From NCBI GenBank assembly GCA_034431475.1, contig DAOUDE010000074.1, positions 31,348 through 95,347 of the forward strand: 64,000 bases of DNA. The letters are read 5' to 3'. A model generated the notes under the pieces. It searched no databases. It was not told the origin of the DNA and was given only the letters and a program-made list of their open reading frames with translations. The stretch comes from Thermomicrobiales bacterium. GTDB taxonomy: Bacteria > Chloroflexota > Chloroflexia > Thermomicrobiales > UBA6265. Positions 3,332 to 61,154 of the stretch are shown here, piece by piece. The stretch's first letter is position 1. Every line of letters starts with the position of its first letter. A program made the translations under genes and the position numbers.

Positions 3332-3463
3332 GCGCCTCGCTCCTGTTGCCCACGTCTCGGTCCGCCAGGTTGAGTATAGGAATTGATTGTCTGCGCCCTG
3401 CCGCTCCGGTACACTCGGCTGCGAGGGAATGAGAGCCACGCAAACCTTTGACACGCTCGGTCT

Positions 3464-3630
3464 ATAGCGCCAGGACTCGCCACGAGGAGACGAGTCGACG
3501 AGGCGGGAGTCAATCGAAACACTCGGCGGATGGCTCCCCGGCAAGCACAGTCGAAACGGGCGGAACAAACCGGCAAGGCAACAAGCCGACAAAACCCTCC
3601 CGGAGTGCATCCTCTCACTTCCCATCACAA
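3464..3630 (+). ncRNA. glmS ribozyme: glmS ribozyme (GlcN6P-dependent self-cleaving riboswitch) in the glmS 5' leader
   Basis: AUAGCGCCAGGACU...GUCGACGAGG...AAUCGAAACACUCGGCGGAUGGCUCCCCGGC...CCGGCAAGG is colinear with the conserved glmS ribozyme core (A|GCGCC cleavage site at 3466/3467). It ends about 85 nt before the glmS ATG. The 3' boundary is approximate. Confidence 0.85.
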
Positions 3631-3716
3631 CTTGGCGATGGTGTACGCCTGGACGGTGGTTCAGTGCGGTCACCATGTTTCGCATTTGCCGGACGCAACA
3701 AGCCGGAGGACCAGGC

Positions 3717-5483
3717 ATGTGTGGAGTATTTGGGTACGTTGGCGCAGAGACCGACGTTGGAGCAACGGTGCTCTCCGCGCTGAAGACGCTTGAGTATCGC
3801 GGTTACGATTCCTGGGGAGTGGCGGTCGCCGCCGCGGACGGCATGATGGTCGACAAAGAGCCGGGCCGCATCAACGGCGTACACAAGCCCTTTCCGCGCT
3901 CGCGCAGCGGCCTCGGCCACACGCGCTGGGCAACCCACGGCGGAGTAACTGCCGAGAACGCGCACCCCCACGTGGATGAGGCCGGGCGCATTGCCGTCGT
4001 CCACAACGGGATCATCGAAAACCACGCTGTGCTGAAAACTGAACTGCTGGCGCGCGGTCACACGTTTCGCTCGGAAACCGACAGTGAGGTGGTCGTTCAC
4101 CTGGTCGAAGAAGCCCTGAATCAGGGTGAATCCCTCCCCCAGGCGGTGTCATCGGTTTTCGAAAGGCTCGAGGGGTACAACGCGGTCGTGGTCCTGGACC
4201 GAGCAAGCGAGCAGTTTGCCGCAGCCAAGCGCGTTTCTCCGTTGGTCATTGGCCGGGGCGCAAACGCCTCCACCATCGCTTCGGACGCAGTGGCAATGCA
4301 CGGTCACGCGGACGAGTTGATTTACCTCGATGACGAACAACTTGCGATCTTGACGGCGACGGGCATTGACGTGCTTGACCGTGTAACGCTTGAGCCATCG
4401 ACACCATATGTCGTCCCGATTCACGCAGCCGACAACGACATCGACCTTGGCGCACACCCGCACTTCATGGCCAAGGAGATGTCCGAGCAGCCGCGATCTC
4501 TGCGCCGCCTCGTACAGGAGGGCAGAGAAGAGATCACGGCGCTGGCAGCCGCCGTGCGAGAGTCTGATCGGGTCCTGCTGGTGGGATGCGGCACCGCCGC
4601 AAACGCCGCGCTGGCCGGGACTTACATCTTCAGCGACCTTTGCGGACGCGAAGCCAACCTTGTGGCGGCGTCCGAGTTCCGCTACCGCAGCGCCTTTCTG
4701 GATGAGCGCGCCCTTGTCATCGCCATCTCACAGAGCGGTGAAACCATTGACGTGCTGGAGGCCGTTCACGAAGCGCAAAGGCGCGGCGCGCGCGTAGCGG
4801 CCATCGTGAATACACCTAACTCGTCGCTCGACAGGCTTGTCAAGACCAGCGTGCATCTGCGCTCCGGCGTCGAGCAGTGCGTGCTGGCGACGAAGTCATA
4901 CACAGCGATGCTGGCGACGTTGATCCTGACTGCCTGTGAATTGAGCGGTGACTGGGACGCCGGAGCCCATGCTGTCGCCCGTGCAGCCGACACTATCGAA
5001 GCCATGCTGGGTAGTGGTACGCCCGACCAACTCCGTGAGCTCGGGGGATATGTTGCTTCACGCGAGCATATGTTCCCGATTGGCCGCGGCGTTCACTACG
5101 CTTCGGCGCTCGAGGCCGCCCTCAAGATCAAGGAAGTCAGCTATGTTCACGCCGAAGGATTTGCCGCTGGCGAGCTGAAGCACGGCGTGATCGCACTCAT
5201 CGAGCCTGGCACGCCGTGCCTGGTCTTCGCGGCATCCGATCTGACGCACACGGATGTACTCTCCGGAGCGGCTGAGCTGCGCAGCCGGGGCGGCTACATG
5301 ATTGGGGTCGGGAGTGAGCCAGACCCAACCTTCGATGCGTTCGTCACGGTGCCGGAAAGCGGCATCGCGAACGTCATCGTTGAAGCGCTCCCCGGACAAC
5401 TGCTTGGCTACTACGCTGCGCTGGCTCGCGGAAACGACCCGGATCGTCCCCGCAACCTGGCCAAGAGCGTTACGGTCAAATGA
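3717..5483 (+). CDS. glmS: glutamine--fructose-6-phosphate aminotransferase (isomerizing)
   Basis: Starts MCGVFGYVG (catalytic Cys2) after GGAGGA at 3705-3710. Two SIS domains; ends ...LAKSVTVK. Confidence 0.97.
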   Translation: MCGVFGYVGAETDVGATVLSALKTLEYRGYDSWGVAVAAADGMMVDKEPGRINGVHKPFPRSRSGLGHTRWATHGGVTAENAHPHVDEAGRIAVVHNGIIENHAVLKTELLARGHTFRSETDSEVVVHLVEEALNQGESLPQAVSSVFERLEGYNAVVVLDRASEQFAAAKRVSPLVIGRGANASTIASDAVAMHGHADELIYLDDEQLAILTATGIDVLDRVTLEPSTPYVVPIHAADNDIDLGAHPHFMAKEMSEQPRSLRRLVQEGREEITALAAAVRESDRVLLVGCGTAANAALAGTYIFSDLCGREANLVAASEFRYRSAFLDERALVIAISQSGETIDVLEAVHEAQRRGARVAAIVNTPNSSLDRLVKTSVHLRSGVEQCVLATKSYTAMLATLILTACELSGDWDAGAHAVARAADTIEAMLGSGTPDQLRELGGYVASREHMFPIGRGVHYASALEAALKIKEVSYVHAEGFAAGELKHGVIALIEPGTPCLVFAASDLTHTDVLSGAAELRSRGGYMIGVGSEPDPTFDAFVTVPESGIANVIVEALPGQLLGYYAALARGNDPDRPRNLAKSVTVK

Positions 5484-6271
5484 GCGATGCCCTGCCGCCA
5501 ATTTTCGACACCCATGCTCACCTCGACGATTCCGCTTTTGACGTTGATCGGCGAGAGGTTGTAGAACGTGGGCGCGCAGCCGGAGTGCAGCACTTCCTCA
5601 ATATCGCCTATCGGCCAGATATCTGGGAGCAGTCTGTCGCCCTCCGTGCCGCCCACCCAGGTGTCGAGTTGGCGGCGGGTCTTCACCCCCAGGACGCAGG
5701 GAGCTTCCGCGCCGCGCAGGCCAACGCGCTCGCCGAGCAGCTTCTCGCGCTGCGGCCGCTGGCCATTGGTGAGGCCGGGTTCGACTTTGCCCGGCCCGGC
5801 CCCACCTTCGGTGAGCAACAACGCGCCTTCCAATGGCAAATTGAAATCGCCATCGCCGCCAATCTCCCACTGGTCATTCATCAACGCGATGCTCAAGAAC
5901 ACCTCACCAGGGAGCTTGATGCCTGGCCCCAGTTGCGGGCGATCATTCTCCACTCCTTTGACGGTGACGCGCGGCTTGCCGCCTGGGCGGTGGAACGGGG
6001 CTGCTTCGTTGGGATCGGGGGCCTTGCCTGTCGCAAGAGTTCCCGTGTTCTCCGCGCCGCCTTGCAGCATATTCCAGTGGAGTCCCTTCTCCTGGAAACT
6101 GACGCTCCCTATCTGGCGCCCCCCAATGCGTCGTCGCGGCGCAATGAGCCAGCAAATCTGCCACTGATCGCAGCAGCACTCGCGCCGCTCTGGAACCTGT
6201 CGCCGGAACAACTCTGCTCCCAAACGACGGCCAACGCCCTGGGCGTTTTGTGCCTGGAATCGAGATCCTGA
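5480..6271 (+). CDS. tatD: TatD family metal-dependent hydrolase
   Basis: 263 aa; IFDTHAHLDDSAF N-terminal motif, LETDAPYLAP motif; ATGA start/stop overlap with glmS. Confidence 0.9.
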   Translation: MSDALPPIFDTHAHLDDSAFDVDRREVVERGRAAGVQHFLNIAYRPDIWEQSVALRAAHPGVELAAGLHPQDAGSFRAAQANALAEQLLALRPLAIGEAGFDFARPGPTFGEQQRAFQWQIEIAIAANLPLVIHQRDAQEHLTRELDAWPQLRAIILHSFDGDARLAAWAVERGCFVGIGGLACRKSSRVLRAALQHIPVESLLLETDAPYLAPPNASSRRNEPANLPLIAAALAPLWNLSPEQLCSQTTANALGVLCLESRS

Positions 6272-6545
6272 CCCGAGCCTGCGGCCGCGCGCGCCCGATT
6301 CATGGCCAGGATTTCTTCCAGGTTTGAATTTCGAGGTCCGCACGTTGGTAGTTCCGCTGCGGCACTTTTGTGCCAGCAGAACACCCTCGGCCAGTACTAT
6401 GCTTGGTACCCTTCGAGTGGCGCCGCCCGCTCACCTGGCGCCATTCATCAGTGAGTCTTCTCAACGGAGAGAAGCACGTTATGACCGATGCTGTTCATTT
6501 GCTGGCGTTCTCGACATCAGCACGGAACGGTTCCGGAACTGAGCG

Positions 6546-7817
6546 ATGATCGCACCAACATCACTTCTGAACCCCAACCTTACGCCACTACGACAGGGAA
6601 GCTTTAACGGATGGCGAGGCCATCTGGACCGGGAACAGGTACCTCCTGTTGTGGCCATCGCTGGCTCCCGCGGCAAGACCAGCGTGCTGCGCGCGGCAGA
6701 GGCCATTTTCACCAACGCCAACCTGCGTACGGCCACCCGGTCCAGCGGTGGCGTCGAGATCGAAGGCGAAAGCCAGCGCGGCGAGATTTCGCCGTGGGCG
6801 CGCGCACTCACCAGGTTGCGTTCAGGAGGGCTCGATGTCGCCTTCCAGGAGGTCGACTGGGTAACGGTGCTGGCAACGGCGTCGGGGGATCTCACGTATC
6901 CCGTGCTTGCCGTCACCAATCTCTGTGCAAACAACGATGCATGTCTCGCCACTCCCGACACAATGTTGGCCCGCAAGGCGCTCGCCCGCATCCGGGCGAG
7001 TCTGCCCGGCACGGCTCAACTTGTCCTCAACGCCCACGATTTCGCCCTCGCTGACGACGACGGCGAGGTTTCCGCTCAGCACTACCTCGTCGGGATGACA
7101 CCGGACGCCCCCATGTTGCGCCGGCATCTGGCGAAAGGCGGCAATGCCTGCTACATCCACAACCACAGCGTCGTGCTGGCCGAGAAAGGCAAGCCGTGTG
7201 CGGTGGCAGAGACCGCCGAGATTCCCTGGTTTCGCGCTGAGTCAGTCCCGTTTTCTGTCCAGAATGGGCTGATGGCGACCGCAATTGCTCACGCCTGTGG
7301 CCTCAGTGTTTCCCAGATTCGTGCCGGTCTGACCGCCTACGAGCCGCGCGCAGCGACCATGCCCGGCTCATTCAACGTCTTTGAGGCCGGCCCGGCAACC
7401 GTCGTGGTGGACCGTCCGACACACCCCTGGTTCCTTCGCACCTCGATACGCGGTGCAGCCGGTCTGGGAGCCCGCCGCCAGATTCGGGTCGTTGGCCCAA
7501 TGCTTTCGGTACCGGCAGAAGATATGAACGAGGTTGGAAGACTTCTTGGCCGGCAGTCTGGCGCGATCATCATGCATGGCGACTGGCCGCATGACCGCCT
7601 CGGACTGTTCAAACTCGGCGTCGCAATGAATGATGTGCCACCGGTGATTCTTCACGCCGCCGACGAACGGCGGGCGATACTGCAAGGGCTGGAAATGCTT
7701 CGCCCAGATGACGTTCTCCTGGTTCTCGCCGAGAACCCTGCCGCGGTGGTCCGGTTGGTCGCGAGCCAGGTTCGGCGCATCGAAGAAGCGCTCCCGCAGC
7801 CCGCCGGAGCCGCATGA
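6546..7817 (+). CDS. Mur ligase family protein resembling the cyanophycin-synthetase M domain, with degenerate catalytic motifs
   Basis: 423 aa; P-loop VVAIAGSRGKTSV; LAVTNLCANNDAC where Mur ligases have TN(I/L)xxDH(L/M); MPGSFNVFE...VVVDRPTHP where CphA/Mur ligases have PGRxN...DYAHNP. ATGA overlap with polX. Confidence 0.7.
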   Translation: MIAPTSLLNPNLTPLRQGSFNGWRGHLDREQVPPVVAIAGSRGKTSVLRAAEAIFTNANLRTATRSSGGVEIEGESQRGEISPWARALTRLRSGGLDVAFQEVDWVTVLATASGDLTYPVLAVTNLCANNDACLATPDTMLARKALARIRASLPGTAQLVLNAHDFALADDDGEVSAQHYLVGMTPDAPMLRRHLAKGGNACYIHNHSVVLAEKGKPCAVAETAEIPWFRAESVPFSVQNGLMATAIAHACGLSVSQIRAGLTAYEPRAATMPGSFNVFEAGPATVVVDRPTHPWFLRTSIRGAAGLGARRQIRVVGPMLSVPAEDMNEVGRLLGRQSGAIIMHGDWPHDRLGLFKLGVAMNDVPPVILHAADERRAILQGLEMLRPDDVLLVLAENPAAVVRLVASQVRRIEEALPQPAGAA

Positions 7818-9490
7818 GCGCAGGACTCTCCAACAGCCGCCTTGCGGAACGGCTCGATCGACACGCCAGGCTGCTGGAGATCGCAGGCGAAAGCGCATTC
7901 CGCGCCCGCTCTTACCTGCGCGCGGCCGAGACGGTGCGCGAACTCGACGTTCCGGTCAACGAAATCGCCCGGGATGGCTTGTTGCGGACACTGCCCGGTG
8001 TCGGCGAAGCCATGGCTGGCGCCATCACCAGCTTGCTGGAGACTGGCTCGTTTGCCGGTCACGATGAGCTCACTCAACAGTTTCCCGAGTCGTTGCTTGA
8101 CCTCGCTTCGGTGCCAGGCATCGGACCCAAGAGCGTCAACAAGCTGTTCACCAAGCTCAAGGTCGCCACACTCGACGAGCTTGCGGCAGCAGCAGCGAGC
8201 GGGATTATTGCCGCCACCCCGGGGCTTGGTAATCGCGTTCAGAAAGCTGCCGTCGAAGGGCTGGCGCAGCTCGCCGCACGCACTGGAAAGATTCCGCTCG
8301 GCAGCGCTCGGGCGGCGGCCGCTCTATTCGCAGCTGCCTACAGCGTCACGCGTCCACAGGACGCGATTTCCGCCACTGGCGGCGTGCGTCGGTGGGACGT
8401 TCTGGTGGACGAGTTGCGCTTTGTCATCGCGACTGCCGACCCGGATGATGCACGCAACGCCATCAGCCGCCTTCCTGGGGTGGAGTCGGTCACGGCAGAG
8501 TCCGCGCATGAACTTGCCATCCGTTTCGATGACGACAAGTCGGGGCGCGTCTATCTGACATCGCCCGAGTCGTACGGGTCACTCCTCGCACGGACAACCG
8601 GAACCCCCGCTCATCTCGCACGGCTCGGCGAAATCTCCGACGGCCTCGCTGCCGAGGAAATGGTCTATGCCGCAGTGGGTCTGCCCTGGATACCGCCGGA
8701 ACTCCGGTCTGGCGACGAGGTCTTCACGAGGCTGGGCGAGATCCCAGATCTAATCACGACCGCAGATCTCAACGGCGAACTCCACGCACATACCACCTGG
8801 AGCGACGGGCAGGCGACGGTCGAAGAGATGGCCAGGTCGGCGAGGAAACGCGGGTATACCTTTCTCGGTATCACCGACCACAGCCAGAGCCTGGCGGTGG
8901 CCAACGGACTCAATCACGGAAGGCTGCTTGCGCAGCGTGCAGAACTGCATGCTGCGTCCTCCAACGTCGGGATCCCGCTCCTCGCGGGCGCAGAGGTCGA
9001 GGTACTTTCCGACGGGTCCATGGATTATCCGGACACGGTGTTGGCAGAACTGGATGTGGTTGTTGGCTCCCTGCACGGTGGGCTGCGGCAGCCTCGTGCC
9101 AAACTGGTCGATCGCCAGGTGCGAACGCTCCGCAACCCGCATGTCGATATCCTCGCCCATCCATCCGGCCGGCTCCTCGAACGCCGGGAAGGCGGCGATT
9201 TCGACTGGGATGTCACGTTTGCCACGGCGGCAGAAACCGGCACGGCGCTTGAAATCAATGCAGATCCCGCACGCCTTGACCTCGACCCGAAACTGGCCCG
9301 CATCGCCGCTGAGGCAGGGTGCCTGATCACTATCAACAGCGATGCTCACTGGGTTGATGGCTTCGACACGGTTGAATTCGGCGTCATGATGGCCAGGAAA
9401 GCCTGGCTGAAACCAGTCCAGGTGCTGAACGCCTGGGAGCCGGAGCGAGTGCTGCTCTGGCTCAGGGATCGTGCTGCGGCGCGTCGCTAG
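7814..9490 (+). CDS. polX: family X DNA polymerase / PHP-domain 3'-5' exonuclease (PolX)
   Basis: 558 aa; N-terminal 8-kDa and HhH motifs (LPGVGEAMAGAI, VPGIGPKSVNKL, TPGLGNRVQKAA). C-terminal PHP domain (GELHAHTTWSDG, GITDHS, SDAH). Confidence 0.9.
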   Translation: MSAGLSNSRLAERLDRHARLLEIAGESAFRARSYLRAAETVRELDVPVNEIARDGLLRTLPGVGEAMAGAITSLLETGSFAGHDELTQQFPESLLDLASVPGIGPKSVNKLFTKLKVATLDELAAAAASGIIAATPGLGNRVQKAAVEGLAQLAARTGKIPLGSARAAAALFAAAYSVTRPQDAISATGGVRRWDVLVDELRFVIATADPDDARNAISRLPGVESVTAESAHELAIRFDDDKSGRVYLTSPESYGSLLARTTGTPAHLARLGEISDGLAAEEMVYAAVGLPWIPPELRSGDEVFTRLGEIPDLITTADLNGELHAHTTWSDGQATVEEMARSARKRGYTFLGITDHSQSLAVANGLNHGRLLAQRAELHAASSNVGIPLLAGAEVEVLSDGSMDYPDTVLAELDVVVGSLHGGLRQPRAKLVDRQVRTLRNPHVDILAHPSGRLLERREGGDFDWDVTFATAAETGTALEINADPARLDLDPKLARIAAEAGCLITINSDAHWVDGFDTVEFGVMMARKAWLKPVQVLNAWEPERVLLWLRDRAAARR

Positions 9491-12400
9491 GAAGCAACCA
9501 GCACCTGCTCTGCCGGTTGCTTCACCCGGGCCGTCCCGGCCGCGAGTCTCACCGCCGCAATCCCTCCGACGGAAAGCAACTGATCTTGCAGTTCCTTGCT
9601 CCACTCAACGGAGCGCGACCGGCTGCGCAGGACGCGAAGCCGGCCACTGCGCATGGGAACCACGAACACGACCGGATTGTCACCTTCATACTGGCGCAAT
9701 ACGCGGTCAAGCTCTTGCAGCAATCGCACATCGGTCCATCTGTCCGACGCCGGCCCCAGCTGCACGACCACGCTTTCGGCTGGTGTCTGTGGCGCCGCAA
9801 GTGCTGGCAGGTCAGTGGTCATGGACTCACAAACGAGCTGGAGGGCTTCCCCGCGCTTCTCCAGCTTGCCTCGGATGTCGACGATGGTCCCTTCGCTCAG
9901 TACCCCGCTAAACTGCTCGTAGGTCGAGGGAAAAAGCACGACCTCCACCTGCGCTGACAGATCCTCAGCGTTAACGACGGCCATAGATTTGTTCGTTTTC
10001 GTCGTGATTCGCCGCACGCTCTCTATAATCGCCAGCACGCGCACTGAGCTATTGACCTCCAGGTGCTCGAGCTGCGAAATGTCGCAAATCGACCGGCCCT
10101 CCGGAGACGACGCAACTCTCTCCATGACCTCTGTCAGTGGGTGGTCACTCATGTACGTGCCAAGGAGTTCCTTCTCCCACTCGAGAACCTGCCGTGAGTC
10201 AAGCGTGACTTCTGGCAAGATGTCGACGGGCACTTCGTGAACGGAGGCCTCCCCAAAGAGATCCATCTGCCCTCGCGCCGACGCACGCTGTCGCTTCTGG
10301 GCGGCGCCGATTGCCGCATCCAGCCCCTCCAGGATCCCGCCTCGGTTGCCTAGCACATCCAGCGCGCCCGCCTTGGCGAGAGATTCCAGCACCCGCCGGT
10401 TCACAGTTCCCCACTCGATGGCGTCGCACAGGGCAGAAAGGCTGCCAAATGCGTGGTTTGGCGTGGCGCTGCGCTGGGCGACAATCGACGTGACGGCCCC
10501 TGTCCCGACATTCTTGACCGCCGCAAGCCCAAACCGTACCGCCTTGCCCGTTTCATGCGGCTCGACACTGAATTCGACACCGCTATGATTGATGCTTGGG
10601 GGAAGCACCACAATGCCGGATCGCCGGCATTCCGCGAGTAACGCGACGATGCGTTCGGTGTTGCCAAGTTCCGACGTGAGCAGTGCCGCCATGAACTCCA
10701 CCGGATGATTGGCCTTGAGGTACGCCGTTTGCGCGGCGATGACGGCGTAGGCGGCGGAGTGTGCTTTCGGGAATCCATAGCCCGCAAACTTCTCGATCAA
10801 GTCAAAGACTTCAGTCGCCAGCTTCTTTGCGATCGAGTTCTCGCCACACCCGGAAATGAACCGATCCCGGTACTTGGCCATCTGCTCCGGAAGCTTCTTG
10901 CCCATCGCCTTGCGTAGGCCGTCGCCTTCCGCCATGGAGAAGCCTGCCAGCACGTTCGCGATGCGAATCACCTGCTCCTGGTACAGCGCCACCCCGTAGG
11001 TTTCCGCCAGGATCGGTTCCATGTCCGGGTGCAGGTACGACGTCTCAGCCTTGCCATGCTTCCGGGATATGTAGTCAGGGGCCATCGCCATCGGCCCCGG
11101 CCGGATCAGCGCCATCAGCGCCACCAGGTCGTCAAAGCAGTTGGGGGCAACGTCGACGGTCATCCGGGCGGTCGTCCCGCTCTCCAGTTGGAAGACCCCG
11201 GCCGTTTCTCCTCGCTGGAGCAGCGCGAACGCATGATCGTCTTCGAGCGGGATGGTCTCCAGGGATATGTCGTGACCACCGGCCTGCAACAACGTGACGG
11301 CTTTCCCGAGCACGGTCAATGTGCGCAAGCCGAGGAAGTCCATCTTGAGCAGACCCAATTCCTCAAGCTGCGTCATCGGAAACTGAGTCGTGATATCCCC
11401 TTCGCTCTTGCCGCCAGCGCGCTGGAGAGGGACATGCTCCACGAGTGGGTCGCGCGAGATGACCACACCCGCCGCGTGGGTGGACGAGTGCCGGGCGATG
11501 CCCTCCACCTTGCGGGCGGTGTCAATCAACTCACGAACCGAATCCTCGGCATCGTAAAGCGCCTGCAGTTCTGGAACCTTCTCCATCGCGTTGGAGATGG
11601 TGATGCCAGGCCCGGTGGGAATCAGCTTGGCAACCCGGTCGACTTCGCCGAAGGATCTCCCCATCGCGCGGCCACTGTCACGAACCGCCGCCTTGGCGCC
11701 AAGTGTCCCGAACGTCACGATCTGTGCGACCCGGTCAGCACCATACTTCCTGACCACGTAGTCAATTACTTCGCCTCGTCGATCATCAGCGAAGTCAATA
11801 TCGATGTCCGGCATCGAGATGCGTGACGGATTGAGGAAGCGCTCGAAAATCAGGTTGTATTTCAGTGGATCGAGTCCGGTAATGTCGAGCGAATAGGTAA
11901 CGATGCTTCCAGCCGAGGACCCACGACCCGGACCAACCAGGATGCCGTTCTCTTTCGCGTACCTAATAAAGTCCCAGACCACCAGGAAGTAGTTTGAAAA
12001 CCCCATTCCGCTGATAACGCTCAGCTCGTACGTGAGCCGCTCCTCGACGGCGCCCGAAACGTGCCCATACCGCTTCTCGGCGCCAATCCGGCACAGGTGC
12101 TCCAGGTAGGCATCCGCCGTTTCGAACTCCGCCGGCCGCGGGAACTCCGGCAAGTGGTAGCCCTTGAAACTGAGATCGAGGTTGCACATCTCCGCGATGC
12201 GCATGGTGTTGCCGATGGCCTCTGGCACCCCGTCAAAAAGGCGCGCCATCTGCTCGCCGCTCTTGAGAAAGAGCTGGTCAGACTCGGTTTTCATGCGCTT
12301 GGCATCGTTCAAGGTTGCATTCGTCTGAATGCACACCAGAAGATCTTGCGCCGAAGCGTCCTCCTGATTGCAGTAGTGGACATCGTTGGTCGCCACCAGC

Positions 12401-12987
12401 GGCAGCTCGAGCTCTCGAGCGAGCGCAATCAGATCACCGTTGACCTGGAGCTGCTCCTTGATGCCATGATCCTGTATTTCAATGTAGAAGCGCTCCGGCC
12501 CGAAGATCTCCTTGAGCTTGACGGCGTAGTCTCGTGCCAGCTCGGGTCGGCCGTGCAGAATGTTGTTGGCCACCGGTCCGCCCAGGCAGGCCGACGTGGC
12601 GATGATCCCCTGGCCGAGCTCGCCCAGCATTTCAAGATCGATACGAGGCCGGTAGTAGTACCCCTCAAGCTGCGCCCGGGTGGAGAGCTTCAGCAGGTTG
12701 CGGTAGCCGGTTTCGTTTTCGGCAAGGAGCAGCAAGTGATAGGACTTGCGTTCCCGCGCCCGCGCGCTGCCCTCGGCCAGGTAGGCCTCTACCCCAACAA
12801 TTGGGTGAATGCCGGCTGCACTTGCCGTCTTGTACCACTCCATCGCTCCGTACATGACCCCGTGGTCTGTGACAGCAATGTGCTTGATACCCAGATCTTG
12901 CGCACGCGCGGCGTACTCCTTCGACCGGCCCATGCCGTCCAGCAACGAGTACTCGGTGTGGAGATGGAGGTGCGCAAACTCCGCCAA
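9487..12987 (-). CDS. dnaE: DNA polymerase III alpha subunit
   Basis: 1166 aa; PHP N-terminus FAHLHLHTEYSLLDG, palm/fingers and OB-fold regions; TTG start at 12985-12987 preceded by AGGAACAGGAG. Confidence 0.97.
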   Translation of the reverse strand: MAEFAHLHLHTEYSLLDGMGRSKEYAARAQDLGIKHIAVTDHGVMYGAMEWYKTASAAGIHPIVGVEAYLAEGSARARERKSYHLLLLAENETGYRNLLKLSTRAQLEGYYYRPRIDLEMLGELGQGIIATSACLGGPVANNILHGRPELARDYAVKLKEIFGPERFYIEIQDHGIKEQLQVNGDLIALARELELPLVATNDVHYCNQEDASAQDLLVCIQTNATLNDAKRMKTESDQLFLKSGEQMARLFDGVPEAIGNTMRIAEMCNLDLSFKGYHLPEFPRPAEFETADAYLEHLCRIGAEKRYGHVSGAVEERLTYELSVISGMGFSNYFLVVWDFIRYAKENGILVGPGRGSSAGSIVTYSLDITGLDPLKYNLIFERFLNPSRISMPDIDIDFADDRRGEVIDYVVRKYGADRVAQIVTFGTLGAKAAVRDSGRAMGRSFGEVDRVAKLIPTGPGITISNAMEKVPELQALYDAEDSVRELIDTARKVEGIARHSSTHAAGVVISRDPLVEHVPLQRAGGKSEGDITTQFPMTQLEELGLLKMDFLGLRTLTVLGKAVTLLQAGGHDISLETIPLEDDHAFALLQRGETAGVFQLESGTTARMTVDVAPNCFDDLVALMALIRPGPMAMAPDYISRKHGKAETSYLHPDMEPILAETYGVALYQEQVIRIANVLAGFSMAEGDGLRKAMGKKLPEQMAKYRDRFISGCGENSIAKKLATEVFDLIEKFAGYGFPKAHSAAYAVIAAQTAYLKANHPVEFMAALLTSELGNTERIVALLAECRRSGIVVLPPSINHSGVEFSVEPHETGKAVRFGLAAVKNVGTGAVTSIVAQRSATPNHAFGSLSALCDAIEWGTVNRRVLESLAKAGALDVLGNRGGILEGLDAAIGAAQKRQRASARGQMDLFGEASVHEVPVDILPEVTLDSRQVLEWEKELLGTYMSDHPLTEVMERVASSPEGRSICDISQLEHLEVNSSVRVLAIIESVRRITTKTNKSMAVVNAEDLSAQVEVVLFPSTYEQFSGVLSEGTIVDIRGKLEKRGEALQLVCESMTTDLPALAAPQTPAESVVVQLGPASDRWTDVRLLQELDRVLRQYEGDNPVVFVVPMRSGRLRVLRSRSRSVEWSKELQDQLLSVGGIAAVRLAAGTARVKQPAEQVLVAS

Positions 12988-14957: not shown

Positions 14958-15031
<74 letters not shown>

Positions 15032-15101: not shown

Positions 15102-16163
15102 CTACGGATACCCCATGATAGGACGCGGCAGCGCCAGGTACGCGAGGTACGTGCCGTCAGCACTGAGCGCTGGCGACGTGCACGCCAACCCTGTCAACGT
15201 GTGCATGGTGGCTTCCGCGGTGCCTCCCCGCAGAACCGCAATCTGGCTCCCACTGTCTACCGCCAGCGTTCCGGTGGCATCGATCGCGGGATCGCGAGCG
15301 CCGTCAGCCAGAGCCGAGGTGACCGCCGACGGTTTTCCGCCCGTGGCTGGCAGCCGGTAAACGTCGCTCCGCCCCTCGACACTGGCCGAGTAGAGCAGGT
15401 CGTCAGTTGTCCTCTCCCAGATGATCGGAGCATTGGCCGTCATGCTTGTCAGGCGTCTTCCTGATCGCTCGGCAAGTTCCACGCGGAAGATCCCCGATGT
15501 CGCGCCCTTCTGCTCTGCCTGCACTGCCACAGCAATCGCCTCGCCGTCAGGCGACCAGGCCATGCTCGTCACGCTACTCCGTGCCACGTCGCTGTTTCCG
15601 CCACTCGCGCCACCCAGCGATGTCACCTGCTGCCGCATGTCCCCAATAACGTCGAAGACGCAAAGCTCATCGCCCTGTCCGTCCCAGCAGATGAACGCGA
15701 TCCGCGTCCCGTCTGGCGACCACGCAGGACCCCCACGCGTTACGATCGGGGGTCGGATGGCGCCATCTGGTCCGTCGTAGAGAGTTATGGGGGGAATCGT
15801 GGCCTCTGAATGGACGTTGACGATTCGCAGGAGCCGCGATTGCGGATCAAGGAACGCGATTTCGGAGTTATCTGGCGACCATGCCGGCCTGCCCACAATG
15901 TGCATCGCGGTCAGCAGGGAAACCTGGCTCGATGAGACGTTCCACACCTTCAGGCCGTGTTCGTCGCCCCAGGCCAGCATCTCACCATTCGGGGACCACG
16001 CAGGAGCGCCAAAAGTGTCGTCGATCCACCTGGGTGCACCCTCTGCTCCCGTGATGTAGAGCCCGGCGCGAGGCGAATCGGCCCTGCAGCCACAGAGAAT
16101 CAATGAGGCGCATGCTGCGCCAGACAATTGGAGCACCTGCCGGCGGGCAAGCCGCACGTTCAC
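15102..16163 (-). CDS. PD40 (TolB-like) beta-propeller repeat protein with Tat/lipoprotein-like signal
   Basis: 353 aa; N-terminus MNVRLARRQVLQLSGAACASLILCGC. Repeated AWSP(D/N)G blades (PAWSPNGEMLAW, PAWSPDNSEIAF, PAWSPDGTRIAF, MAWSPDGEAIAV). GTGA overlap with the recF stop. Confidence 0.8.
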   Translation of the reverse strand: MNVRLARRQVLQLSGAACASLILCGCRADSPRAGLYITGAEGAPRWIDDTFGAPAWSPNGEMLAWGDEHGLKVWNVSSSQVSLLTAMHIVGRPAWSPDNSEIAFLDPQSRLLRIVNVHSEATIPPITLYDGPDGAIRPPIVTRGGPAWSPDGTRIAFICWDGQGDELCVFDVIGDMRQQVTSLGGASGGNSDVARSSVTSMAWSPDGEAIAVAVQAEQKGATSGIFRVELAERSGRRLTSMTANAPIIWERTTDDLLYSASVEGRSDVYRLPATGGKPSAVTSALADGARDPAIDATGTLAVDSGSQIAVLRGGTAEATMHTLTGLACTSPALSADGTYLAYLALPRPIMGYP

Positions 16164-24302: not shown

Positions 24303-25601
24303 CTACCTGGGGGCCAGCCGGGCGCCTCTGGCGCCAAGGCCGAGAATGACGCCAACGGTAAAACCCGAGACCAGCATTGACGTCCCGCCGTACGACACGA
24401 ACGGTACGGTCAATCCGGTGAGCGGCATCAACCGAAACACGCCACCGAGGATAAGAAGGATCTGGAGTCCCAGCAGCACCACAAGCGCAACGGCAATGAA
24501 CTGCTCCAGTTCAGTTGGCGCCATGAGCGCGTTCCGGGCAGATCGCACAACAGCGACTGCCAGAAGGGCCAGCACCGCGCTCGAGACAAGCACGCCGAAT
24601 TGCGCGCCGATCGCCGACACGATGAAATCGGTCTGTACCTCCGGCACGTTGCGCACGTCCGGCGCGATCCGCCCCCCGCCCAGGCCTCCCCAGGCCAGAG
24701 CGTACTCTCCCTGGATGAACTGATATCCCGCTCCCATTGGCGCGCGCCACGGGTCCAGCCAGTTGTCGACTCGCACCTGCACACGTGGCGAGCGGCCAGC
24801 GGCCAGCCAGACGACGGCGCCGACGGCGCACCCCATTGCCAGCACACTCCACCGCGAGCGAAGGCTGCCGGCGATGATGGCAAACGCTGCCAGCGCCGTG
24901 AGTGCAGCCATGCCGAGGTCATTCTGCACAGCGAGGGCGGCGAGGGCGAGGGCAAGCGCGCCGCCGACCGGGATCAGGTACGGGACAGGCGGCAACTCCC
25001 AGCGCCCCACTCGCCAGGAAGAGGACAACACGTGCCGCCGGTCATAGAGGTATGCGGCCATGAACGCGGCCAGGAGCACCCGAGCCACCTCGGCCGGCTG
25101 AGCCCGCAGCGGGCCAATGACCACCCAAAGCCTGGCGCCATTCACTTCTGTCCCGATCAGCATCGTGGACCCGATCAGCGCCAGGGCGGCGGCGGCGGTG
25201 AGATACGGGTAGCGGCGAACCAGTGGCGCAGCTCTGGACATGAATACGCCCAGGACCAGCGCACCGAACGCCGCCACCGCAAAAGCCGCGTGTCGCACCA
25301 GGATATCCCGGAAAAACAATTGCGTTCCCCCGGACAGTCGAGCGATCTCCAGCAACGAGACGACGCTGATGCTCGTCAACATGCCGCAGGTGGACAGGAG
25401 CAGCAGGTCTAGTCCTGGAACAGTAGCCCGCAACAGCAGGCCACAGATGAGCGGTGCGAACGCGGCTGCCAGCATCAACCCGGTGACCGTTTCACCAGGA
25501 GGCTGACCGCCCCGCAGCACGCTCGCCGCTCCCGACAGCAACACCAATGCCGGCAGCAGCAGCAACAGACAGTCCTGTACAAGCGTGCCAATCCGCGTCA
25601 T
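24303..25601 (-). CDS. ftsW: FtsW/RodA/SpoVE (SEDS) family peptidoglycan glycosyltransferase
   Basis: 432 aa polytopic membrane protein; PEVQTDFIVSAIG and LTVPFVSYGGTSMLV motifs. Confidence 0.9.
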   Translation of the reverse strand: MTRIGTLVQDCLLLLLPALVLLSGAASVLRGGQPPGETVTGLMLAAAFAPLICGLLLRATVPGLDLLLLSTCGMLTSISVVSLLEIARLSGGTQLFFRDILVRHAAFAVAAFGALVLGVFMSRAAPLVRRYPYLTAAAALALIGSTMLIGTEVNGARLWVVIGPLRAQPAEVARVLLAAFMAAYLYDRRHVLSSSWRVGRWELPPVPYLIPVGGALALALAALAVQNDLGMAALTALAAFAIIAGSLRSRWSVLAMGCAVGAVVWLAAGRSPRVQVRVDNWLDPWRAPMGAGYQFIQGEYALAWGGLGGGRIAPDVRNVPEVQTDFIVSAIGAQFGVLVSSAVLALLAVAVVRSARNALMAPTELEQFIAVALVVLLGLQILLILGGVFRLMPLTGLTVPFVSYGGTSMLVSGFTVGVILGLGARGARLAPR

Positions 25602-59253: not shown

Positions 59254-60144
59254 ATGGTCGCCACGTCACTTCATGTCACTGAACATGCCGAGGCAGCATC
59301 GTCAGGCTGGTCCATGTTCTGGTGGCGCTTCCGCCACAACCAGAAGGCGATGATCGGCGGCATCATCGTTCTTCTCCTGATTGCCTGTGCCATCTTTGCG
59401 CCTCTCATCGCCCCCATGGACCCGAACGACGGCGAGTTGAGCGCCAGCCTCGCCGCTGTGGGAGAGAAGGGATATGCACTTGGCACTGACAAGAATGGCC
59501 GGGATGTCCTGAGCCGCCTCATTTACGGCAGCCGCACGGCACTTGGCGGCGCGCTCATGGTCGTGGTCATCTCCGAAATCATTGGGGTACCCGTCGGGAT
59601 CTGGGCAGCCTACCGGGGCGGCTGGGTGGACGAGACAATCACTCGCGTCTGGGATATGTTGCTCGCATTCCCGCCGCTTCTGCTCGCCTTCGCGGTCGTC
59701 GCCGCCTTCGGCCCTGGCTTGCCCAAGGCGGCATTTGCTCTCGGCATCCTGTATGTGCCCTTTATCGCCCGTGTAGTCCGCAGCGTCACCCTCGTGCAGA
59801 AGGAAATGGCGTACACCGAAGCTGCGCGAGCCCTCGGCTATCCCCAGAGTCGGATCATCTTCCGCCACATCCTCCCCAACTGCGTGTCGCCCGTCATCGT
59901 CGTGACGACTATTGACGTGGCCTACGCCATGCTCGACCTGGCCGCCCTGTCATTCCTCGGCCTCGGTGTGCAACCACCTACCGCCGACTGGGGCACCATG
60001 CTCTCCGAGGGCCAACTCGTGCTGCTCACCGCCCCTCACCTTGCCGTTGCGGCCGGCTCGGCGATCGTCCTCGCGGTTCTCGGCTTCAACTTGCTCGGCG
60101 ACGGCCTCAGGGACGTCCTGGACCCCCGCCAGGCACAACGATGA
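59254..60144 (+). CDS. ABC transporter permease (DppC/OppC-like)
   Basis: 296 aa; GTDKNGRDVLSRLIYG, EAARALGYP loop. Confidence 0.93.
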   Translation: MVATSLHVTEHAEAASSGWSMFWWRFRHNQKAMIGGIIVLLLIACAIFAPLIAPMDPNDGELSASLAAVGEKGYALGTDKNGRDVLSRLIYGSRTALGGALMVVVISEIIGVPVGIWAAYRGGWVDETITRVWDMLLAFPPLLLAFAVVAAFGPGLPKAAFALGILYVPFIARVVRSVTLVQKEMAYTEAARALGYPQSRIIFRHILPNCVSPVIVVTTIDVAYAMLDLAALSFLGLGVQPPTADWGTMLSEGQLVLLTAPHLAVAAGSAIVLAVLGFNLLGDGLRDVLDPRQAQR

Positions 60145-61154
60145 CCGAACCCCTGCTGCACATCGAGGACTTGCGCGTCTGGTTCGGCACCCGCGCCGGT
60201 GACGTTCGCGCAGTCGACGGCGTAGACCTGACGATTGGACCCGGGGAGATCGTCGGCCTCGTGGGAGAATCAGGTTCCGGCAAGAGCGTCACCGCCCGCT
60301 CGATCATGCGGCTCGTTCCCATGCCGCCGGGTCGCGTGGTGACGGGCCGCATCTTGTTCGAAGGCCAGGATCTGCTCGAACTCTCGGAGCGCGAAATGGA
60401 AGCCCTGCGTGGCGGGCGCATCTCCATGGTCTTCCAGGATCCGATGACCTTTCTCAACCCGCTCTTTACGGCTGGAGATCAGGTCGCGGAAGCCATCAGG
60501 CAGCACCAGCGCCTTAGCAAGTCCGCCGCGGAGGCCGAGACGCTGAGGCTCTTCCGGCAAGTCGGCATCCCATCACCCGAAGCACGCCTCAAGGCCTATC
60601 CGCACCAGCTTTCCGGTGGGTTGCGACAGCGCGTCATGATCGCCATGGCACTCTCGTCCCGTCCCGATCTGCTGATCGCGGACGAACCTACGACGGCGCT
60701 CGATGTCACCATCCAGGCGCAGATTCTTGCCTTGCTGCGTGACTTGCAACGTGACTCTGGCATGAGCATCCTGCTGATTACTCATGACCTCGGGGTTGTC
60801 GCGGAGATGTGCGACCGTGTCGCCGTCATGTATGCCGGGCGCGTGGTAGAAGACACGGATATTGAAACGTTGTTTGAGAATCCGCAGCACCCCTACACCC
60901 TGGGCCTCATGGGCGCGGCGCCGAGACCGGACCTGCCCGACCAGGCGCCGGTGCCGATCCCGGGCGCTCCGCCGGACATGACGCACCCGCCTTCCGGCTG
61001 CGCCTTCCATCCACGCTGCAGGTTTGCCGAGGAAATCTGCAGGGTCGACAGGCCGTTGTTGCGTGAGACCTCACCCGGCCACCGCGCCGCCTGCCATTTC
61101 GCCGGCTCGCCACACATTGCGCAGGAATCGATCGTGCTGGTGAACGCGGAATGA
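60141..61154 (+). CDS. ABC transporter ATP-binding protein (DppD/OppD-like)
   Basis: 337 aa; [30 protein letters not shown]-terminal oligopeptide-type Cys cluster. Confidence 0.95.

Follow-up and report, generated by a model that had tools for sequence, protein, structure and literature searches.

Enzymes with the Mur-ligase fold are textbook ATP-dependent amide ligases, and their invariant residues are thought to be essential. The described proteins closest to the one studied here are the M domain of the cyanophycin synthetase CphA1, which is built of a core and a lid module (Mcore and Mlid; PDB 7LG5, 7WAC), the ligases MurC, MurD, MurE, and MurF, the stand-alone Mur-fold ATPases PgsB and CapB, and PAP11, a MurE-like protein of the plastid RNA polymerase. 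In TeCphA1, ATP-Mg is held by K499, T500, T522, and E558, as seen by cryo-electron microscopy (PMC9427784). For PAP11, a stabilizing role has been described, and its catalytic activity is stated to be undetermined (PMC11561172). Here, we analyzed murL, a gene located in a 64,000-nucleotide (nt) stretch of DNA from a Thermomicrobiales bacterium (hereafter the window, to which all plain coordinates refer; features lie on the + strand unless stated otherwise). The murL gene (6546–7817) begins with the earliest ATG after the upstream stop (6546), ends with a TGA (7815–7817), and encodes a 423-amino-acid (aa) stand-alone relative of the CphA M domain that consists of an ATPase core and a C-terminal lid and has no N or G domain.

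At the full-domain level, cyanophycin synthetase was the only NCBIfam match of MurL: PRK14016 (E 2.3e-41, 141.8 bits) aligned from MurL residue 34 onward over model positions 481–866 of 871, that is, the M domain only, and TIGR02068 matched with E 6.5e-32 and 110.4 bits. Both scores fall under the whole-protein cut-offs of these CphA1 families (877 and 850 bits, respectively), and a domain scan of the 423 aa found no match to the CphA N-terminal domain (PF18921) or to ATP-grasp. The Pfam models Mur_ligase_M (PF08245, 12.7 bits, gathering 24) and Mur_ligase_C (PF02875, 21.3 bits, gathering 28.4) were both sub-threshold. A phmmer search against all PDB sequences returned CphA1 chains only, the top one being 7lg5 (residues 489–795, E 3e-14). 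An AlphaFold2 (AF2) model built from a 22-sequence alignment had a predicted local distance difference test score (pLDDT) of 76 and a predicted template modeling score (pTM) of 0.62; when it was searched with Foldseek, CphA1 M domains ranked first (E 1e-20, prob 1.0, TM-score up to 0.68, normalized by query length), followed by MurE, MurF, MurD, and MurC (E 1e-17 to 1e-13, prob 1.0), and PAP11 was also among the matches. The predicted structure thus has the Mur-ligase superfamily fold, with a central ATPase domain and a C-terminal domain.

The CphA1 M domain is therefore the best match of MurL in both sequence and structure, and the two have the two-module layout in common. However, true CphA relatives show both the N domain and the ATP-grasp G domain, which MurL lacks, and murL resides in a housekeeping operon that has no cyanophycinase gene nearby. 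With MurC, MurD, MurE, and MurF, MurL shares the central ATPase and the C-terminal Rossmann-like fold, but not the UDP-binding N-terminal domain. PgsB and CapB resemble MurL in being stand-alone Mur-fold ATPases that have no UDP-binding domain and carry a G(S/I)RGK(S/T) P-loop; the likeness is nevertheless limited to MurL residues 29–68 (TIGR04012, 13.6 bits, cut-off 222.7), and the neighbors of murL are tatD and polX rather than pgsC or pgsA.

A word-indexed search recovered more than 200 homologues of approximately 420 aa (E down to 1e-277). We also carried out an exhaustive profile search against 1.8 billion cluster representatives (clusters at 50% identity), which yielded several dozen stand-alone proteins of full length (about 400–446 aa) with gradually declining scores, among them some 35 clusters with E values from 1e-176 to 1e-36; full-length CphA proteins started only behind these stand-alone clusters, at about E 1e-33. 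The homologues with a taxonomic name all came from Thermomicrobiales or other Chloroflexota metagenome-assembled genomes (MAGs), and our literature search turned up no relevant account of such a family in Chloroflexi. These results indicate that MurL belongs to a family of uncharacterized stand-alone Mur-ligase-fold proteins that branched from the CphA M-domain lineage and that, as far as sampled, is restricted to Chloroflexota (Thermomicrobiales and relatives).

We then measured the conservation of the active-site motifs across 267 non-identical members of the MurL family (20–100% identity to the window protein), to which all of the following counts refer. The P-loop AGSRGKTS (residues 39–46; 6660–6683) is intact; its K44 and T45 correspond to K499 and T500 of TeCphA1 in the alignment, and G40, G43, and K44 are invariant (267/267; K44, 100%). 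In the FQEVDW motif (6843–6860), E102 is, by alignment, the counterpart of the Mg-binding Glu of TeCphA1 (E558), and it is Glu in 265 of 267 members (99%). The ATP-Mg ligands of TeCphA1 are all matched in MurL, by K44, T45, S66/S67, and E102, and 245 of the 267 have a Thr or Ser at position 66. D165 (98%) and N240, the adenine-binding Asn (94%), are likewise conserved, and the N(A/G)(D/E)D and FQVxNAL motifs shared with the CphA1 M domain are retained.

Other parts of the site have been exchanged. In place of TNxxxDH, MurL has TNLCANNDAC (residues 124–133; 6915–6944), a family-specific paired-Cys loop in which the DH of CphA pairs with N129-N130, so that the second-metal His is gone; the window protein has N130, and a His occurs at this position in only five of the 267 members. 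C127 and C133 are 95% and 94% conserved, respectively. Both cysteines are present in 252 members, neither in 13, and a single one in 2, so the pair is kept or lost jointly, which is the pattern expected of a functional pair. In place of PGRxN, MurL has PGSFN (residues 273–277; 7362–7376). The lid Arg is replaced by S275 in the window and by Ser (231) or Ala (22) in most of the family, with an Arg in none of the 267. In place of (V)DYAHNP, MurL has VDRPTHPWFLRTSIR (7407–7451), in which residues 288–294 read VDRPTHP: the Asp is retained as D289 (94%), the AH is gone, and WFLR and R302 are newly conserved (W295, 94%; R298, 88%; R302, 99%). The Lys that is conserved in CphA at the carbamylated-Lys position of MurD, MurE, and MurF is not conserved in the MurL family, and practically no member keeps the GDR and RGR lid motifs of CphA. 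Instead, the family has motifs of its own, namely an N-terminal SFxxWR, QE(L/V)DW, TN(L/I)CxNxxxC, PG(S/A)xN, and DRPxPSWFLRxxxR.

The invariants of the Mur family include the P-loop Lys, the Mg-binding Glu, the adenine-binding Asn, and the Asp of D(Y/D)xH. All four are retained in MurL, as K44, E102, N240, and D289. Two further residues, the His of TNxxxDH and the Arg of (P)GRxE/N, which are reportedly among seven Mur-family invariants according to MurC mutagenesis by Bouhss and colleagues, are not retained. ATP site 1 is thus preserved, and the second-metal and lid-closure elements have been exchanged for fixed family-specific residues. The preliminary description of this gene, made from the sequence of the window, had read the product as colinear with the M domain of cyanophycin synthetase, with an AGSRGKTS P-loop, no His in TNLCANNDAC, no Arg in PGSFN, and DRPTHP in place of DYAHNP. 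Each of these readings holds, and proper alignment bears out that the canonical His and Arg are not conserved. Its comparison with CapB/PgsB applies to the form of the P-loop and to nothing beyond residues 29–68. Its term "eroded" does not suit the catalytic motifs, since the substituted motifs are among the most conserved in the family, a new co-varying Cys pair is present, and, as shown next, selection on murL is as strict as on glmS.

The ratio of nonsynonymous to synonymous substitution rates (dN/dS) of murL against four relatives (79–85% protein identity) was 0.055–0.082, compared with 0.044–0.068 for glmS and approximately 0.055 for the PHP part of the downstream polX gene; these ratios are rough, as dS exceeds 1. 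These values bear directly on the possibility that murL is what is left of a cyanophycin synthetase gene in decay, a truncated pseudogene that is still open. Such a remnant would account for an ORF (open reading frame) that spans just the M-domain part of CphA and for the loss of several catalytic residues. It would not account for the low dN/dS, for invariant motifs, for several dozen full-length stand-alone clusters of 400–446 aa that rank above full-length CphA, or for an operon position and translational coupling that are conserved. The selection and conservation data refute this explanation, and we regard its probability as practically negligible. Because the replacement motifs are fixed family-wide and dN/dS is low, the site of MurL is best described as remodeled, not eroded, and the sequence comparisons indicate that murL is a functional gene under strong purifying selection.

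Since both the ATP-site residues and the replacement motifs are conserved, MurL is better read as a remodeled enzyme or an ATP switch than as a decayed ligase. On balance, we lean toward the reading that the old active site of MurL continues to bind ATP-Mg and now serves either a non-canonical reaction or an ATP-gated binding function. The Cys pair would then form either a thiophilic-metal site replacing the second Mg site or a redox or nucleophile pair, and R302 together with R298 may stand in for the lost lid Arg. The gene would be expressed from an ancestral housekeeping string, glmS ribozyme-glmS-tatD-rdgB-murL-(polX); in the lineage of the window, it would be translationally coupled downstream to a PolX with a dead polymerase site and an intact PHP site, and upstream to a 22-codon ORF that sits where rdgB formerly ended. 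Several points weigh against this reading. Losing both the His and the Arg would cripple the canonical acyl-phosphate mechanism, and a non-catalytic ATP-binding or scaffold role is possible. The confidence of the AF2 model is moderate and is lowest precisely at the Cys loop and at PGSF (273–276), with pLDDT below 50 at residues 128–136. The case for function is made from sequence, context, and predicted fold, the taxonomic range of the family is based on few named MAGs, most loci lying on metagenome contigs, and the loci that provide the context, described below, are not phylogenetically independent, so that their tallies overstate the sample size.

The gene context of murL was compared among 79 loci, namely the window and 78 related loci obtained from exact-protein look-ups and a metagenome scan, with neighboring genes typed by tblastn, Pfam, and NCBIfam; a scan of genome contigs with a single MurL protein gave three close loci. 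The common layout is glmS ribozyme-glmS-tatD-ham1/rdgB-murL-(polX), facing a convergent dnaE. In the window, the string is led by a glmS ribozyme (3455–3612; Rfam RF00234, 71.1 bits, gathering 37, E 5.9e-15). Its first gene is glmS (3675–5483), encoding glutamine-fructose-6-phosphate aminotransferase (Pfam GATase_6/7 and SIS) and found upstream in related loci as well. It is followed by a gene of the TatD DNase family (5480–6271; Pfam TatD_DNase, E 4e-60), a conserved upstream neighbor that overlaps glmS by 4 nt. At the other end, dnaE (Pol III alpha; 9487–12987, − strand) closes the string in all clades, as judged by tblastn and Pfam in related loci. Farther upstream lie purB and pur genes, and farther downstream a helix-turn-helix (HTH) gene, FTCD_C, folD, and fhs. 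The region from purB to fhs is syntenic across the related loci; the whole neighborhood is therefore an inherited gene order, and adjacency within it says little about function. A transfer RNA (tRNA) gene (14958–15028; RF00005, 58.7 bits) is also present in the window.

The position in this string is one argument for a further explanation, in which MurL would catalyze conventional ATP-dependent amide ligation on a new acceptor or donor and be co-regulated with glmS via the glmS ribozyme; it could, for example, attach an amino acid to a protein, an acidic polymer, or a precursor of the cell envelope, and the adjacency to polX would be no more than inherited order. In all loci with enough upstream sequence, glmS is indeed part of the murL string, and, if the string is a single transcript, tatD, murL, and polX would share control of their mRNA by glucosamine 6-phosphate (GlcN6P). 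The closest relatives of MurL, the CphA M domain and MurE, are true ligases, and the strong purifying selection as well as the retained ATP-site residues, N(A/G)(D/E)D, and FQVxNAL would suit a working ligase. However, hardly any member retains the second-metal His, the Lys conserved in CphA, the lid Arg, or the GDR and RGR motifs; in addition, both Pfam Mur-ligase models score below their cut-offs, and the UDP-binding N-terminal domain is missing. Moreover, in the clade of the window, a conserved spacer of 275 nt and a short ORF of its own lie between tatD and murL, and co-transcription with glmS is putative there. An ordinary ligase is thus possible but, in our judgment, unlikely.

Downstream of murL, the gene order varies. 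Among the 52 loci informative on this side, the next gene is polX in 31, the convergent dnaE directly (gaps of approximately 20–300 nt) in 15, a stand-alone PHP protein in two, and another gene (NYN/ROK, PP2C/RadC) in four. On the upstream side, RdgB/Ham1 precedes murL, often with a 4-nt overlap with its start, in 58 of the 66 informative loci, and tatD lies directly upstream, with a spacer of approximately 280–380 nt, in seven (the clade of the window, L004, and L017). RdgB/Ham1 is therefore a more constant neighbor of murL than PolX. Loci without PolX occur at six or more separate places on a neighbor-joining tree of MurL, and MurL and its motifs are retained in all of them. This scatter implies that PolX was gained or lost repeatedly while MurL stayed, and it indicates that the PolX link is lineage-specific and dispensable and that the core role of MurL does not require PolX.

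Where polX does follow murL, the two genes are often tightly joined. In the window, they meet in an ATGA overlap (7814–7817), in which the polX ATG (7814–7816) overlaps the murL stop and is preceded, at a distance of four bases, by a GGAG (7806–7809) within the 3′ end of murL. The ATGA overlap with polX is found in nearly all loci whose MurL is at least 50% identical, and in distant loci the junction ranges from an overlap of a few nt to a gap of about 350 nt. Start/stop overlaps of 4 nt are frequent in the window, at 6 of the 29 same-strand junctions between long ORFs (5480–5483, 7814–7817, 16160–16163, 25598–25601, 60141–60144, and 61151–61154), and they include glmS/tatD, whose products are functionally unrelated. 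Such an overlap is hence evidence of co-expression of murL and polX, not of partnership.

The polX gene of the window (7814–9490) is of the noncanonical type: it has intact 8-kDa/HhH and PHP parts, no polymerase triad, and a shortened thumb. Its product matches the PolX of Thermus (ttPolX, 3au2) with E 2e-98 and scores 402 bits against PRK08609 (cut-off 426). The ttPolX residues D198, D200, and D243 are replaced by E, R, and V, respectively (VDELRF, 8405–8422; GRVYLT, 8543–8560), and about 18 thumb residues are deleted before YAAVGLPWIPPELR (approximately 8620–8700). All nine PHP metal ligands are present (H324, H326, D331, H356, E394, H421, H449, D510, and H512), located by the motifs LHAHTTWSDG, ITDHS, GAEVEV, SLHGG, LAHPS, and NSDAHW, in the pattern HHDHEH[C/H]DH. 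The protein thus lacks the three palm Asp residues that define canonical PolX and has the features of the noncanonical, or altered, class, in which the palm triad is lost and the nine PHP ligands and the 8-kDa/HhH parts are kept; this loss was missing from the preliminary description. Polymerase-inactive altered PolX proteins act as exonucleases, and the survey of this class, which covered just two Chloroflexi, lists no Mur-ligase neighbor in its neighborhood tables (PMC9226535; PMC12926913).

Triad loss is recent and limited to the clade of the window (the window, L001–L003, and L038); the neighboring clades keep GDLDF...AD. The thumb deletion of about 18 aa, in turn, is shared by all murL-adjacent PolX proteins (L004–L070 and the window), even those with an intact triad. 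Within the clade of the window, dN/dS was 0.11–0.145 for the polymerase part of PolX versus approximately 0.055 for the PHP part, an approximately twofold faster rate. In the clade whose MurL is 29% identical to that of the window, the gene that overlaps the murL stop by 4 nt in the PolX position encodes a stand-alone PHP protein of 224–228 aa (L071, 9266–9940; L073, 9224–9910; its start also in L072, 2250–2402). We considered whether the proteins of L071 and L073 are truncated PolX and rejected this: with E 1e-79 and 6e-84, they fall into the PRK06361 family ("histidinol phosphate phosphatase domain-containing"), and they are only 28–32% identical to the PolX PHP domain. The loci show a stepwise loss of PolX at a fixed position, from canonical to polymerase-dead to absent or exchanged for a small PHP protein. 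This series is in line with the published notion that selection acts on the PHP nuclease rather than on the polymerase.

These data bear on an explanation in which MurL is a dedicated partner of the downstream PHP phosphoesterase, whether the PHP domain of PolX or the stand-alone protein, and acts as a pseudoenzyme scaffold or an ATP-dependent regulator, perhaps in a complex that cleans DNA ends or nucleotides; RdgB and TatD would be translated from one mRNA with them. The conserved ATGA overlap would suit such a partnership, as would a PolX whose polymerase site is dead and whose PHP domain is under tight selection, and the operon neighbors TatD and RdgB likewise act on nucleic acids or nucleotides. 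The unrelated PRK06361-type protein looks like an analogous replacement in place, and it is the sole observation that favors a specific MurL-PHP link. PAP11 offers the nearest conceptual precedent, by analogy, for a Mur fold attached to a polymerase, having been recruited to the plastid RNA polymerase complex with no known ligase role (PMC11561172). PAP11, however, is a eukaryotic MurE descendant with three domains and a demonstrated polymerase contact, whereas MurL and PolX are linked by gene adjacency and PolX is often absent. The 15 loci in which dnaE follows murL directly have no PHP gene there, four more have other genes (NYN, PP2C), and the PolX-less loci scattered over the tree keep MurL and its motifs. 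An invariant P-loop, the Mg-binding Glu, and a fixed Cys loop at the old site are not what one would expect a scaffold to retain, and both the frequency of 4-nt overlaps between unrelated genes and the synteny of the neighborhood reduce what adjacency can tell. We therefore consider a dedicated PHP partnership unlikely.

The preliminary description had taken the ATGA overlap as a sign of co-translation, had noted no described pairing of a Mur ligase with PolX, and had suggested a PolX partner or scaffold or, alternatively, a ligase with a new substrate, which is possible as discussed above. The overlap is real and conserved, and our literature search turned up no described pairing of a Mur ligase with PolX or PHP; the adjacency to polX extends beyond this genome, yet it is optional across the family, and a role dedicated to PolX is at odds with the loci that have kept MurL and not PolX. 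A broader variant, in which MurL is the ATP-using part of a "hygiene" module for nucleotides and DNA ends, acts on damaged nucleotides or nucleic-acid ends alongside RdgB, TatD, and a PHP phosphoesterase (the PolX PHP domain or the PRK06361 type), and has paired-Cys chemistry new to the fold, appears quite improbable to us. The Cys pair would here serve as a metal or redox site, and the recurrence of two unrelated PHP enzymes directly downstream, in overlap with murL, would be the sign of a genuine functional need.

The upstream side of murL differs between the window and most of its relatives. The tatD-murL spacer of the window (275 nt) sits where ham1/rdgB lies in other clades, and tblastn found no homologue or remnant of ham1 in the spacer or in the whole window. 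Within the spacer, a non-coding stretch (6372–6480) is conserved in the clade of the window, as judged from five-locus alignments. It contains a GC-rich hairpin at approximately 6415–6447, a second hairpin, CTTCTCAACGGAGAGAAG, at approximately 6458–6475, and the invariant blocks GGCACTTT and GGTACTATGCTTGG. RNAalifold identified two compensatory pairs in the GC-rich hairpin, a count that comes from five sequences only. A scan of 6372–6480 matched no Rfam family, and it revealed neither a promoter nor a terminator of consensus type; we rejected GGCACTTTTG(T/G)GC as a sigma-54-like element, as its spacing is one base short.

The spacer also contains a 22-codon ORF, MTDAVHLLAFSTSARNGSGTER* (6481–6549), with a GGAGAG of its own and a TGA that overlaps the ATG of murL (ATGA). 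This ORF is conserved in L001–L003 and L038, and its overlap with murL mirrors that of the ham1 stop and the murL start in other clades. By eye, the encoded peptide bears a weak resemblance to the C-termini of Ham1, and the ORF may be a relic of the 3′ end of a deleted ham1 that keeps the translational coupling to murL.

We also asked whether Ham1 and MurL occur as a fusion. None was present among ten longer proteins tested (517–1188 aa), all of which carry canonical Mur_ligase_M and Mur_ligase_C domains. Six have a cyanophycin synthase N domain (four with no ATP-grasp match and one fused to a cyanophycinase); of the other four, one has a weak ATP-grasp match only, two have Mur domains only, and the last is a double Mur ligase in tandem. 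Among these longer proteins, P0197, P0206, P0227, and P0248 (599–643 aa) as well as P0211 combine a CphA-like N domain with Mur_ligase_M/_C, with no ATP-grasp G domain detected, and could be either an N-M architecture or fragments. P0196 (1188 aa) has a Peptidase_S51 (cyanophycinase-type) domain N-terminal to a complete CphA, and P0192 (972 aa) is the tandem double Mur ligase.

Taken together, these results indicate that MurL is an uncharacterized variant of the Mur-ligase superfamily and that its pairing with PolX is real in this lineage, not universal, and of putative functional meaning. Database labels attached to the family, such as "cyanophycin synthetase", "UDP-N-acetylmuramyl tripeptide synthase", and "UDP-N-acetylmuramate-alanine ligase", are backed by neither domains nor motifs and mislead inferences on nitrogen storage and the cell wall. 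For specialists on Mur ligases, the family is of moderate interest because of its fixed Cys-pair active site: it is deeply conserved in Chloroflexota and has kept the ATP site, with a co-varying Cys pair and new arginines in place of the His and Lys of the second-metal site and the Arg of the lid. If MurL is active, it would represent a new way to run or repurpose the Mur-ligase fold; if it is an ATP switch, it would add a bacterial member to the short list of Mur homologues that are not ligases, PAP11 among them.

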